Virus record (IMG/VR): IMGVR_UViG_3300010396_000044
DNA from: an uncultured virus (IMG/VR IMGVR_UViG_3300010396_000044)
Taxonomy: Duplodnaviria; Heunggongvirae; Uroviricota; Caudoviricetes
Reading direction: 5' to 3' (one strand)
DNA: 32,487 nt
Below are positions 759 through 14,836 of this stretch, one piece after another (positions within the stretch are counted from its first letter, which is position 1; each line of letters starts with the position of its first letter). The position numbers and the translations under genes were made by a program. The notes under the pieces were generated by a model, which saw only the letters and a list, made by a program, of their open reading frames with translations, searched no databases and was not told where the DNA came from.

Positions 759-2087
759 ATGGCCAACCGCGAAGCCACCGAGCCGTTGCCGCCGTGCGAT
801 CTGGATGCTGAACGGGCCGTGTTGGGCGCGATCCTCATCTCGCCAGCCGCGCTCGACCAAATCATCGACACTCTCACCGTCGCCGAGTTCTACCGACCTG
901 CGCACCAAACCATCTACGCCACCGCCCTCGACCTTTACGCCGCGGGTGACCCGGTTGACCCGATCACGATCTCCGCGCGGCTCGCCGCCGCTGGTGATCT
1001 CGTCCGTATCGGGGGTGCGCCCTATTTGCAGGATTTGGCGCATGATGTGCCCACCGCCCGGAACATTGGCTACTACGCCGAGATTGTCGCCCGCCAGGCC
1101 GTTAAGCGGCGTGCTGTGGAAACCGGGCAACGCATCGCTCAGCTCGGTCACGCCTGGGCCGCGGACGAGGACGGTCTCACCGACCGGATCGAGCAACTCA
1201 CCACCACCCTCACCACCGGCCGGCGCGATGACGATGGGTTGATTGATCTCGACACTGCGGTAGCCCAAGCCTTCGAGCGGCTCACCGGCCCTGTTCCCTC
1301 CACGATCCCCACCGGATTGCACGATCTCGACGCGATCCTCAACGGCGGTTTGCGTAACGGAGCTGTTTACGCAATCGGGGCCAGGCCCGGATCTGGCAAA
1401 AGTTTATGCGGAAGTGGTATCGGGCTCAACGTCGCGCAGTCAGGTATCGGAGTCCTCATCAATTCCTTGGAGATGGGCCGTGAGGAGATCACTAACCGGA
1501 TCCTCTCGAACATGTCCGGGGTCGAGTTAGCCGCGATCAACACTCACAAACTCAATGACTTCGACTGGGCGCGTCTACGGAAAGCTCAGGCACAGTTCCT
1601 CGGCGCGCCGCTGTTGATCCGGGACACCCCCAGCCTCACCTCCGTTGGTTTGCGTCGTCAAGCCGAGAAACTCGCCCGCAAAGCCACCGGGCTTGGGCTC
1701 GTCATCGTTGACTACACGCAGCGAATGACCCCCGCCGACGCCAAGGCCCCCCGGGAACTCCAAGTCAGCGAATTCACCCGCGACTTCAAACTCCTGGCGA
1801 TGCTCCTCAACATTCCCATCATCGCGCTCTACCAAACTAATCGGAAATCAACCGAACGGCAAACACCCGACATGAGCGACTTCCGCGAGTCAGGCTCTAT
1901 CGAGGCCGACTGTGATGTGGGAATCATTCTGAAACTCCCCACCGAACCCGAACGAGCCGGCGAACTTGACGCCCATGTGGTCAAAAACCGGCACGGCCGC
2001 TGCGGTGTTGTGACTTTGGCGTGGTCGCCGCATTACGCCCGGATCCGCTCCCTCGCCCCCGAGGATGCGTGGCAGGACGCCTCATGA
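759..2087 (+). CDS. dnaB: DnaB-like replicative DNA helicase
   Basis: N-terminal PP.DLDAERAVLGAIL and FYRPAHQ; Walker A GARPGSGKS; SLEM; Walker B IVDY; DFRESGSIE; KNRHG. Confidence 0.95.
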   Translation: MANREATEPLPPCDLDAERAVLGAILISPAALDQIIDTLTVAEFYRPAHQTIYATALDLYAAGDPVDPITISARLAAAGDLVRIGGAPYLQDLAHDVPTARNIGYYAEIVARQAVKRRAVETGQRIAQLGHAWAADEDGLTDRIEQLTTTLTTGRRDDDGLIDLDTAVAQAFERLTGPVPSTIPTGLHDLDAILNGGLRNGAVYAIGARPGSGKSLCGSGIGLNVAQSGIGVLINSLEMGREEITNRILSNMSGVELAAINTHKLNDFDWARLRKAQAQFLGAPLLIRDTPSLTSVGLRRQAEKLARKATGLGLVIVDYTQRMTPADAKAPRELQVSEFTRDFKLLAMLLNIPIIALYQTNRKSTERQTPDMSDFRESGSIEADCDVGIILKLPTEPERAGELDAHVVKNRHGRCGVVTLAWSPHYARIRSLAPEDAWQDAS

Positions 2088-3490
2088 TCACCACGGATGC
2101 CACGGGCCGTGGCGATGCCCTGGGTCTACCAGCGGAAACACACCCTGTGGAGATCCACACCCGGCCGTCCTCCGACCGGGACACCGCCACGAACCCCGGA
2201 AACGGGCCTGAGAGCCACCCTGCCGAATCGACCCTAGCCGCGCACCAGGATGGGGGCGCCAACGCCGCCACGACCGATCTGGGCGGCGAAACGGGGCAAC
2301 GCGGCGTGACCACACCACGCGTCGGAGGCCTCTTCGCTGGGGCCGGGATGCTCGACCACGCCGTCCACCACACCCTCGGCGCCACCCCAGCCTGGTTCGT
2401 GGAGAACGACCCCGCCGCCAGGAAGGTGCTCGCCCACCACTGGCCGCACGTGCCCAACCACGGCGACATCACCCACGTGAACTGGGCAGACGTCGAGCCC
2501 GTGGACGTGCTGTGCGGCGGATTTCCTTGCCAGGACATTTCATCGGCCGGCCTTCGAACTGGGCTGCGTCCAGGAACGCGATCCGGGTTGTGGTCCCACA
2601 TGGCCTACGCGATCTCTCAACTCAAACCGAAATTGGTGATCATCGAAAATGTTCGAGGACTCTTATCGGCCGACGCGAATTGCGACCTGGAACCCTGCCC
2701 GTGGTGTTTGGGAGACAACGAGGGTCGCCCTTTGCGGGCACTCGGAGCCGTACTCGGAGACCTGGCCAGCATCGGGTATGTGGGTCAATGGCGTGGCTTA
2801 CGAGCTTCCGATGCCGGCGCCCCCCACGGACGATTCCGGGTCTTCATCACCGCATGGCCTGTTAGCGACTCCCGCGGCGTCAATCGCGAGGGGTGGCCGT
2901 CCGCAGGACTCAAAAGGCGAACGCGATCTACGGCTGGACCTGCTGCCGACACCGACGGCCTCGGATCGGTTCGGGGCTGGGGAACACGGGGACGGTGGGA
3001 CGGACTTGCGAACCACAGTGAGTTTGCTGCCGACCCCTGCGGCGCGGGATGCGGGCCGAGGAGCGGGCTGGGGAGACCAGCCGGGGCGACCGTTGAGCGA
3101 AACGGTGCACCGACTGCTGCCGACGCCACGGGCATCGGACGGGGAGAAGGGTGGCCCGAATCAGCGGGGTTCGTCGGGGGATCAGATGCTGTCCTCAGCG
3201 GTGATGGAGCTTCTGCCCGATGGGGATCGTATGAGCCCGCTATCCGACGGTGGGAACTGATCCTCGGCCGCCCGGTACCCGCACCAACTCAAATCGGGCA
3301 GCGCGGCGGCCAGCAACTGTCGCCACGGTTCACCGAATGGTTGATGGGCTGGCCCGACGGCTGGGTCACCAGCATTCCCGGGCTGTCCCGCAATGATCAG
3401 CTGAAGATTTGCGGTAATGGTGTCGTGCCGCAACAGTGCGCCGCTGCGTTGCGGTTGTTGCTCGCGGATGTTGTAGAGCGTGCTGCATGA
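2084..3490 (+). CDS. DNA (cytosine-5)-methyltransferase, phage type
   Basis: Motif I LFAGAG, IV GGFPCQD, VI IIENV, VIII HGRFRVF, IX-like LSPRFTEWLMGWP, X GNGVVP; ATG 2084 overlaps dnaB stop; alternative GTG start at 2306. Confidence 0.93.
   Translation: MITTDATGRGDALGLPAETHPVEIHTRPSSDRDTATNPGNGPESHPAESTLAAHQDGGANAATTDLGGETGQRGVTTPRVGGLFAGAGMLDHAVHHTLGATPAWFVENDPAARKVLAHHWPHVPNHGDITHVNWADVEPVDVLCGGFPCQDISSAGLRTGLRPGTRSGLWSHMAYAISQLKPKLVIIENVRGLLSADANCDLEPCPWCLGDNEGRPLRALGAVLGDLASIGYVGQWRGLRASDAGAPHGRFRVFITAWPVSDSRGVNREGWPSAGLKRRTRSTAGPAADTDGLGSVRGWGTRGRWDGLANHSEFAADPCGAGCGPRSGLGRPAGATVERNGAPTAADATGIGRGEGWPESAGFVGGSDAVLSGDGASARWGSYEPAIRRWELILGRPVPAPTQIGQRGGQQLSPRFTEWLMGWPDGWVTSIPGLSRNDQLKICGNGVVPQQCAAALRLLLADVVERAA
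2649..3260 (+). CDS. Overprinted (+1 frame) ORF nested in the MTase gene; putative MTase partner subunit with tandem LL(P/A)TPxA modules
   Basis: 203-aa ORF with ETWPASGM motif and four in-frame repeats; GGTGA at 2635-2639 upstream of ATG. Confidence 0.7.
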   Translation: MFEDSYRPTRIATWNPARGVWETTRVALCGHSEPYSETWPASGMWVNGVAYELPMPAPPTDDSGSSSPHGLLATPAASIARGGRPQDSKGERDLRLDLLPTPTASDRFGAGEHGDGGTDLRTTVSLLPTPAARDAGRGAGWGDQPGRPLSETVHRLLPTPRASDGEKGGPNQRGSSGDQMLSSAVMELLPDGDRMSPLSDGGN

Positions 3491-13571: not shown

Positions 13572-13829
13572 ATGACAGCGACCGAGGTAGCCAAGGACAT
13601 CCGCACCGAGCTGAAGGCGGCCGGCATCAAGGCCAGTTGCCGCGTGCAGCCCGGCACCCGCAACGTCGTACAGATCTCCGTCCCCAAATATGGGCTCCGT
13701 TTCACCGACGATGAGCAGCGCACCATCCGCACCATGGCAGTAGAGCGCGGCCTGACTTGGGTTCGCGGACTACCGATCGACGTGGACCGCATGACGGACC
13801 CGCACGAGATGAACTTCTACCTGCGGTGA
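13572..13829 (+). CDS. Hypothetical protein, probably leaderless, co-transcribed with the recombinase
   Basis: TAAGCT -10 at 13560-13565, 6 nt before ATG; GTGA overlap with the recombinase. Confidence 0.7.
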   Translation: MTATEVAKDIRTELKAAGIKASCRVQPGTRNVVQISVPKYGLRFTDDEQRTIRTMAVERGLTWVRGLPIDVDRMTDPHEMNFYLR

Positions 13830-14836
13830 CCGAACTCGTCACCACCACCGCGCCCGCGCCGGCGTGCTGCAGCGATGTGGTGCTGCCCGGCACGGCCGAA
13901 CGCATCATCACCGGCATCCCCGAAAATACCCGCCGCTCCTACACCGAAGCGTGGCGCCAATTCACCGACTGGTGCGCCACCACCGGCCGACAACCCCTCC
14001 CCACCACCGCAGCAACCCTCGCCGATTTCACCGCGCACCTATGCGACCTCGGCAAAGCCCCATCCACCATCTCGCACCGCATGGCCGTCGTCAGCGCACA
14101 AAACCAGATCAACGGCTACCCGCCGCTCGGCAAACAAACCAGGAAAGCCGCGAACCTTGTCCTCCGCGGCTACCGTCGCGACCGGGCCAGCACAGCGCAA
14201 CGCACCAAACAAGCACCACCCATCACCCGCGAACGCCTACGCATGATGTCCGCAGCCTGCGACCCAAACACCCTCACCGGGAAACGCGACCGGCTCCTGC
14301 TCGTCATCGGCTGGGCACTCGCCGGCCGCCGCTCCGAGCTCGCCGCGCTGCGTATCGAGGATGTGCGGATCGCTGACGATGAGCTCGAGATCCTGATCCG
14401 CTCATCCAAAACCGACAAAGACTCCGAAGGCGAAATGGTGGACGTTCCCGCTGGTGAGCACGTCGACACCGACCCCGTTGGTTTACTCAACGACTGGCTC
14501 ACCGCACTCGCGGACGCCGGCGTAGACAACACCAGCGGGCCGCTGTTCCGGGCCATCACCCAACACGACCGCCTCTACCGCTACGGAAGCCTCTCCCCCG
14601 CCGCGATCAACGGAATAGTGCGCCGGGCCGCTATCCGCGCTGGCCTGCCGAACGCGCACCTCTACACCGCGCACTCGCTACGGGCCGGGTTCGCCACCCA
14701 AGCCAGCGCCGACGGCATCCCCATGTCCATCTGGGCTGAACACGGAAGATGGGAGAAAACCTCACCCGTGCCAGCGAAATACGTGCGACGCGCAGACCGG
14801 AAACGCGACAACCCACTGCGCAAGATGGGGCTATGA
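13826..14836 (+). CDS. Cre-like tyrosine recombinase (resolvase type)
   Basis: SAM-like N-terminus NTRRSY...F..WC; RD.LL...GRRSEL, SKTD, HSLRAGF, GRW, catalytic Y in AKYVR. Confidence 0.95.
   Translation: MTELVTTTAPAPACCSDVVLPGTAERIITGIPENTRRSYTEAWRQFTDWCATTGRQPLPTTAATLADFTAHLCDLGKAPSTISHRMAVVSAQNQINGYPPLGKQTRKAANLVLRGYRRDRASTAQRTKQAPPITRERLRMMSAACDPNTLTGKRDRLLLVIGWALAGRRSELAALRIEDVRIADDELEILIRSSKTDKDSEGEMVDVPAGEHVDTDPVGLLNDWLTALADAGVDNTSGPLFRAITQHDRLYRYGSLSPAAINGIVRRAAIRAGLPNAHLYTAHSLRAGFATQASADGIPMSIWAEHGRWEKTSPVPAKYVRRADRKRDNPLRKMGL

Follow-up and report, generated by a model that had tools for sequence, protein, structure and literature searches.

The 32,487-nucleotide stretch of DNA from an uncultured virus (IMG/VR IMGVR_UViG_3300010396_000044), hereafter called the window, contains a DNA cytosine-5 (C5) methyltransferase gene inside which a second open reading frame (ORF) is found in the +1 frame. 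We propose that the two frames, named here alpha and beta, specify a two-chain methyltransferase produced from a gene within a gene, in which beta would supply in trans the variable (target-recognition) region; taking together the evidence presented below, we put the probability of this reading at about 0.7. According to this proposal, alpha would contribute the catalytic motifs I-VIII, a meaningless, stop-free linker of about 120 codons and, at its end, motifs IX-X. Beta would initiate at an ATG formed by the Asn codon of the alpha ENV motif, read in +1, and would be made of a small N-terminal domain of beta-sheet type and, after it, four cassettes of the LLPTP type, thereby filling the place occupied by the variable region between motifs VIII and IX in single-chain enzymes. 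If beta holds the variable region in trans, both chains would be required for a working enzyme. Such an organization would explain the dual coding, the selected start, the open filler and the fusion and in-frame variants observed in the relatives.

The alpha protein matches PF00145 over residues 103-279 (E = 2.8e-34; 119.5 bits, above the cutoff of 22) and TIGR00675 (107.2 bits, above the cutoff of 100.65). What we take, by their consensus, to be the C5 methyltransferase motifs I (FxGxG), IV (PCQ), VI (ENV), VIII, IX and X (GNGV) follow one another in a single frame of alpha (Table 1). This frame is stop-free from 2021 to 3490, which corresponds to 489 aa if counted from the GTG at 2021; the alpha protein of the record itself (P0123) has 468 aa and is 100% identical, consistent with the use of the ATG at 2084. 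An earlier note, drawn up from the letters of the DNA, had described a methyltransferase frame carrying motifs I-VIII and IX-X without a stop and a variable region reading as low-complexity G/A/R text. The motif coordinates bear out the former statement and the composition of alpha bears out the latter. Indeed, over about 2858-3214, the residues G, A, R, S, D, and P account for 69% of 118 residues, as compared with 48% elsewhere in alpha, and hydrophobic residues account for 17%, as compared with 33% elsewhere.

The start of beta falls within the GAA AAT GTT codons of the ENV motif, in agreement with the 203-aa +1 ORF reported in the earlier note, together with the GGTGA element (2635-2639) that resembles a Shine-Dalgarno (SD) sequence. 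Four modules were also correctly recognized there, with spacings of 81, 84, and 90 nt, except that each of them starts one base earlier than given (2859, 2940, 3024, and 3114). In a repeat search, modules 2-4 form a 26-nt family with 73-81% identity; module 1 (LLATP) escapes this search because its DNA is too degenerate. Beta has a single match among the PHROG families, with phrog_1008 (E = 3e-28, profile positions 71-210), and residues 364-487 of alpha match the following part of the same profile (E = 1.4e-39, positions 202-324). The label of phrog_1008 is phage 'DNA methyltransferase', and we take it to be a C-terminal-half family. Since this profile is covered by beta together with the alpha C-terminus, one protein family is split here across two frames. 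No Pfam or NCBIfam family matched beta. The predicted proteins that match beta at E <= 0.001 number at least 1144, with lengths of 111-356 aa; almost all of them are unnamed or called 'hypothetical'. At least 6885 predicted proteins are alpha-like.

The first codons of beta, up to about codon 70, overlie alpha motifs VI-VIII. When the +1 frame of the actinobacterial relatives was translated, the pattern ..IATWNPARGVWET..CGHSEPYSETWP.SGM..NG.AYELP..SGSSSP of the beta N-terminal domain was found in every one of them. No close DNA relative of the window was detected by megablast, the best match having 71.6% identity over 29% of the gene, and at the protein level the identity of the best segment of the best relatives is 51-59% (54% and 51% to alpha for the best tblastn segments of loci L003 and L004). 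Because close relatives are lacking, codon resampling was used in place of dN/dS. The alpha protein of a homologue was kept fixed, its synonymous codons were redrawn 600 times, and the resulting +1 translation was scored against that of the window. Eight homologues were used (L001-L006, L042, and L043); L007, L044, and L046 were omitted for frame changes in the region, L045 for a shorter VI-VIII region, and L008-L015 as too distant or partial. Over motifs VI-VIII, the +1 frame scores above the null in all eight homologues, with z values of 3.7-7.1. The same resampling gave z values of -0.6 to 2.0 for a control made of the 66 codons before ENV and of -1.2 to 2.7 for a control in the C-terminal part. 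The +2 frame within the overlap is raised as well (z 1.5-4.0), as expected if synonymous sites are constrained. In the reverse test, where beta is fixed and its codons are redrawn, alpha reaches z values of 5.1-9.8. As both frames score above the resampling null, the VI-VIII overlap is, by this measure, truly dual-coding, each frame being under its own selection. A G+C frame plot was too weak, at 62% G+C, to separate the frames over 2650-2860. The overprinting proposed in the earlier note thus stands as regards the nested gene; however, the dual-coded part is made of the first ~70 codons of beta over motifs VI-VIII, which had gone unnoticed, and alpha is merely open over the modules.

The start of beta provides a second line of evidence. 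Among 14 loci compared over the ENV region, two designs are found and they are perfectly exclusive. In six of these loci, including the window, the Asn codon is AAT, which produces an ATG in +1. In the other eight, Asn is encoded by AAC, Arg by AGA or AGG and Ser by AGT, which produces GAGAGGA followed, 7 nt further on, by a GTG in +1. Upstream in the same 14 genes, the background usage is 9% for AGR, 4.5% for AGT and 2/28 for AAT. A second sample of 73 further viral loci gave a similar picture: AAT encodes the ENV Asn in 30 of the 73 loci, versus 12/152 in the background, and, in the 43 AAC loci, AGT is used in 31 (background 19/447) and AGR in 21 (background 28/506). AGT is found in 3 of the 30 AAT loci. 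Judging from this codon usage, rare synonymous codons of alpha create the beta start, which is under selection.

The third line of evidence comes from the stretch downstream of motif VIII, where the codons of the beta protein were resampled and the openness of the alpha frame was recorded. In the window alone, the chance of an open alpha frame is 0.095. Sixty-seven viral loci were considered that have motifs IX-X in the alpha frame, and in all 67 of them no stop interrupts alpha across the beta-coded stretch, versus 10.9 expected. This sample was not picked for an open alpha, since the loci were found via a beta-frame pattern. On the grounds of codon resampling, of the start-codon design and of the openness of both frames across relatives, beta is evidently a real gene rather than an ORF open by chance, an error of sequencing or a frame in decay.

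The layout of the locus in relatives was studied by a viral scan in which 584 stretches matched and 288 were confirmed; the best 80 of these were inspected and 73 could be classified. The window type, nested with an alpha frame devoid of modules, was found in 50 loci, and a nested type with at least one module in the alpha frame in 16, giving 66 nested loci of 73. In five loci, motifs IX-X are in the beta frame and alpha contains stops. The two remaining classifiable loci are irregular, with motifs IX-X in a third frame in one and a stop in alpha in the other. Of the loci left aside, two are cut before IX-X and five lack a match to alpha or to the N-terminal domain. Wherever both matches are present (75 of 75 loci), the N-terminal domain of beta lies at +1. 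An in-frame L[LMF]PTP motif is absent from 105 of the 111 alpha homologues in which both landmarks were located, out of a sample of the 120 best including the protein of the window. The 0/+1/0 layout is also found in L003 and L004.

Other relatives show where the cassettes stand when the frames are arranged differently. Gordonia phage Lton has a gp60 in which one type-c module (LLPTPRASDG.KGGPNQRGSSGD.ML.SAV) is in frame and immediately followed by WG.YE and motif IX. The gp24 of Mycobacterium prophage prophi91-4 accommodates four in-frame modules, placed after motif VIII and ahead of motif IX. Alpha ends just past motif VIII in Arthrobacter phages Orcanus and DrYang, where one +1 ORF extends from near ENV and encodes in succession the modules, WG.YE, motif IX and motif X. 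The +1 frame of proteobacterial relatives (L018, L031, L056, and others) contains modules of the W[AP]TP type as well as motif IX, and motif X has returned to alpha. By this comparison, the LLPTP cassettes belong to the methyltransferase enzyme. Since relatives carry modules in frame or motifs IX-X in the nested frame, the layout of the window appears as one point on a continuum. The comparison of relatives also backs the claim of the earlier note that there is a real second gene in +1, with a module array, and that motifs IX-X remain in the main chain. The supply of modules in trans, as proposed there, would hold for the window, but other relatives have their modules in frame and some have motifs IX-X in the nested frame.

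Further variants were encountered around the nested gene. The combination of W[AP]TP modules and motif IX in +1 was seen in L018, L031, L056, and L015 as well as in some 40 further loci, proteobacterial or viral, and L015 carries an actinobacterial type-c cassette. In L007 (around 2900) and in P0016, motifs I-VI are fused in frame to the beta N-terminal domain and the modules, with a switch at CPWC..WET and motif VIII left in another frame; these are either natural variants or assembly indels. P0020 contains the beta N-terminal domain and two modules, after which come an out-of-frame type-c cassette, WG.Y, IX, and X. Either a shift of frame upstream of cassette c is seemingly tolerated in this case, or an assembly error has occurred. 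In two Streptomyces genomes (L044, 2700-2760; L046, 2720-2740), the alpha frame changes directly after the catalytic PCQ, which reflects either an inactivating frameshift that these prophage copies have in common or one more hop between frames. In Mycobacterium phages ArcusAngelus, Tweety, and Chevrolet (H61-H65), the methyltransferase match comes in parts spread over about 2.4 kb, and the annotation places two or three 'hypothetical' genes between two genes called 'DNA methyltransferase'. The gene seems likely to contain an insertion in this case, possibly of the homing-nuclease kind (PMC11855218).

The modules themselves vary among relatives. In 121 beta proteins, the strict module motif is present 0-7 times per protein, with a mode of 4. 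Using 12 hand-made signatures, 98 distinct module orders were found among these 121 proteins; the catalogue of types is incomplete because 225 of 482 modules are unclassified. Type c is the most frequent, with 95 modules, and the order in the window is d-a-b-c. As the earlier note had suggested, the number and the order of modules differ among relatives and both frames stay open. This shows that conserved cassettes have been shuffled among relatives, and, by their position, the LLPTP cassettes may be regarded as similar to target-recognition domains (TRDs). It can be imagined that each cassette type, of which at least 12 were seen, would add one methylation target, that cassettes could reside in either open frame or chain, and that recombination or a frame change would re-deal the protection spectrum while leaving the enzyme unbroken. 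This view of a combinatorial two-frame anti-restriction system is tentative, like the multispecific enzyme and the anti-restriction cassette proposed in the earlier note, and we consider that it has rather less chance of being right than wrong.

Several observations weigh against the two-chain reading. The element GGTGATC upstream of the beta ATG is composed of ordinary Val/Ile codons and is therefore weak evidence by itself, being in isolation no sign of selection, and 12 of the 73 further viral loci display neither start design. Between the window and L004, the alpha filler is slightly more similar than expected (z 3.3), which we tentatively attribute to residual synonymous similarity. In an AlphaFold2 model of beta alone (120 sequences), the mean pLDDT is 62.1 and the cassettes are at ~50-60. 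The model of P0055, a relative in which beta is fused to IX-X, has a mean pLDDT of 64.4; its N-terminal domain (four strands) reaches 83-94 and its IX-X part 72-89, and its modules are at 35-60. Comparisons by profile, by PDB sequence and by fold all failed to connect beta with a known TRD. A Foldseek search of the PDB with the beta and P0055 models returned nothing at E <= 0.001; when 48,161 chains were compared by VIA-align, the best Z was 3.0, reached over 38 residues; and the best E of a profile search among PDB sequences was 0.73. In the ESM Atlas, the only clusters found were unnamed 'hypothetical protein' ones, and Pfam fails to reach the cassettes, single-chain relatives included. For want of a profile or fold match, the name TRD is given to the cassettes only from their position in relatives; the lack of structural matches is no evidence for a new fold. 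Finally, it is from the sequences that we infer that a beta protein is produced, associates with alpha and recognizes DNA.

Beta could also be a protein that is translated without being the DNA-reading part of the enzyme, for instance one with a regulatory or scaffolding role, or a phage protein unrelated to the enzyme and sharing its DNA, as suggested by the failure of profiles and folds to match any known TRD and by the low confidence with which most of beta is predicted. We nevertheless consider this explanation unlikely. Single-chain relatives have the same cassettes in frame, lying after their motif VIII and before their motif IX, split forms fuse beta to motifs IX-X, and, at the site where a recognition domain is expected, alpha has only a stop-free filler.

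A single chimeric protein could also be envisaged, made by two ribosomal frame changes, one to +1 past motif VIII and one to -1 before WGSYEPAIRRWE. Its product would resemble the single-chain proteins Lton gp60 and prophi91-4 gp24. However, it would omit the beta N-terminal domain overlapping VI-VIII, although this domain is under selection, and beta possesses a selected start of its own. Moreover, a shifting ribosome does not need an open alpha filler, yet the filler is kept open; the point of return to the alpha frame varies among relatives; and inspection by eye of the junction (3195-3230) revealed no X XXY YYZ heptamer. Frame shifting therefore appears very improbable. Equally hard to sustain is a decaying gene or an assembly artefact, that is, a former single-chain methyltransferase with two compensating frameshifts and an unexpressed +1 ORF: long chance ORFs are frequent in G+C-rich DNA, the openness of alpha in the window taken alone is not an exceptional event, and some relatives look broken (the alpha of GigiOuiOui, L044, L046, L123, and L137), but the 0/+1/0 layout recurs in 50 of the 73 classifiable viral loci as well as in L003 and L004, and signatures of selection are borne by both frames.

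The putative two-chain methyltransferase gene lies in a window of 62.5% G+C that looks like a temperate phage or an integrative element of an actinobacterium (Table 1). Besides an integrase gene, an FtsK-like gene is found downstream of the methyltransferase gene. ATGA overlaps flank alpha on both sides: the helicase stop overlaps the alpha ATG (2084-2087), and the alpha stop overlaps the ATG (3487) of the next gene (3487-3490), which encodes a phrog_289-like 'GTP-binding domain' protein. The presence of such overlaps at both ends of alpha suggests that the helicase gene, alpha and the next gene form a translationally coupled operon of the replication module. Before motif I, alpha is extended at its N-terminus by about 80 residues (2084-2329), rich in T, P, G, A, and D, for which a Pfam scan found no family match.

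Table 1. Positions of the alpha and beta ORFs, of their parts and of neighbouring genes in the window. Bn and the module types d, a, b, and c are labels of this analysis.
Feature	Position	Strand	Remark
DnaB-like helicase gene	759-2087		Directly 5' of the methyltransferase gene
Alpha ORF, C5 cytosine methyltransferase main chain	2084..3490	+	468 aa from ATG 2084
Alpha motif I (LFAGAGML)	2330-2353	+	
Alpha motif IV (GGFPCQDIS)	2516-2542	+	Contains the catalytic Cys
SD-like GGTGATC	2635..2641	+	7 nt 5' of the beta ATG
Alpha motif VI (IIENVRGLL)	2639-2665	+	Asn codon AAT is the source of the beta ATG
Beta ORF	2649..3260	+	+1 frame, 203 aa, whole length inside alpha
Beta N-terminal domain (Bn)	2649..2858	+	..IATWNPARGVWET..CGHSEPYSETWPASGMWVNGVAYELP..SGSSSP; overlaps alpha motifs VI-VIII
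Alpha motif VIII (GAPHGRFRVFITA)	2816-2854	+	
Alpha linker	2858..3220	+	Modules of beta read out of frame; G/A/R-rich, stop-free
Beta module 1, type d	2859..2939	+	LLATPAAS..GGRPQDSKGERDLRLD
Beta module 2, type a	2940..3023	+	LLPTPTASD..HGDGGTDLRT
Beta module 3, type b	3024..3113	+	LLPTPAARD..GRPLSETV
Beta module 4, type c	3114..3203	+	LLPTPRASDGEKGGPNQRGSSGDQMLSSAV; commonest type
Beta tail	3204..3260	+	..SPLSDGGN, stop TGA 3258-3260; overlaps alpha WGSYEPAIRRWE
Alpha WGSYEPAIRRWE	3221..3256	+	Alpha frame back to conserved protein
Alpha motif IX (LSPRFTEWLMGWPDGWVT)	3317-3370	+	Within phrog_1008 positions 202-324
Alpha motif X (CGNGVVPQQ)	3410-3436	+	
Integrase	13757-14836		Downstream of the methyltransferase gene

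If the two-chain reading is true, a very large family of phage and prophage methyltransferases, annotated as one gene, encodes two proteins, and the design of the E. coli enzyme M.EcoHK31I is widespread and no longer a curiosity. With about 200 bases per gene under selection in two frames, the family offers a natural, replicated case for the origin and persistence of overlapping genes. The reading would also make available a collection of methyltransferases that are split by nature and whose cassettes can be swapped, and a testable route by which phages change their methylation spectrum against host restriction.

To our knowledge, a nested two-frame layout has been proven to date for one bacterial methyltransferase only. 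M.EcoHK31I was reportedly first described by Lee, Kam and Shaw in 1995. M.EcoHK31I (YGGCCR) is a heterodimeric C5 methyltransferase whose alpha and beta chains are both needed (PMC2836561). Its beta chain is encoded in another frame within alpha and holds motif IX, and its alpha chain has motifs I-VIII together with X, and is said to hold the recognition domain (PMC2836561; PMC3404938). Compared by this published description, the window is similar in that beta lies wholly inside alpha in another frame (+1). It differs in that motif IX is in alpha, 3' of the beta stop, and in that beta is made of a dual-coded N-terminal domain and four cassettes standing in the place of the variable region. The arrangement published for M.EcoHK31I is that of L018, L031, and L056, with motif IX in +1 and motif X in alpha.

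Tandem modules carried by one chain, each with a proven target, are found in the multispecific C5 methyltransferases of Bacillus phages (SPR, phi3T, rho11s type). The window shares with these several short tandem modules in the place of the variable region, in sets that differ between relatives; unlike them, it has its four modules in a second chain. M.AquI (CYCGRG) is a C5 methyltransferase made of two polypeptides and split within the variable region (PMC3404938). Orcanus, DrYang, and 5 of 73 viral loci resemble it, with alpha carrying I-VIII and beta the rest of the variable region and IX-X. In the window, by contrast, alpha continues to IX-X, and beta corresponds to the variable region only and is overlapped over its full length.

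Another case of an out-of-frame ORF in an actinophage methylase gene is that of ShiLan, presented in PMC11855218 as a mobile HNH homing-nuclease insertion with a patchy distribution. The window resembles it by an inner ORF in another frame of a phage methylase gene, with a host frame that is stop-free across it, and it likewise raises the problem of how translation of the inner ORF is achieved. Unlike the ShiLan element, beta has no nuclease motif or family match and is a constant part of its gene family. A term search of PMC9957025 returned no mention of frames or cytosine methylation, and no description of a cassette-bearing nested gene was found in the literature covered, most subscription journals being outside this coverage. 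Among the systems compared here, the distinct features of the window are a beta that corresponds to the whole variable region and to nothing more, an N-terminus dual-coded with motifs VI-VIII, and a shuffled array of cassettes.

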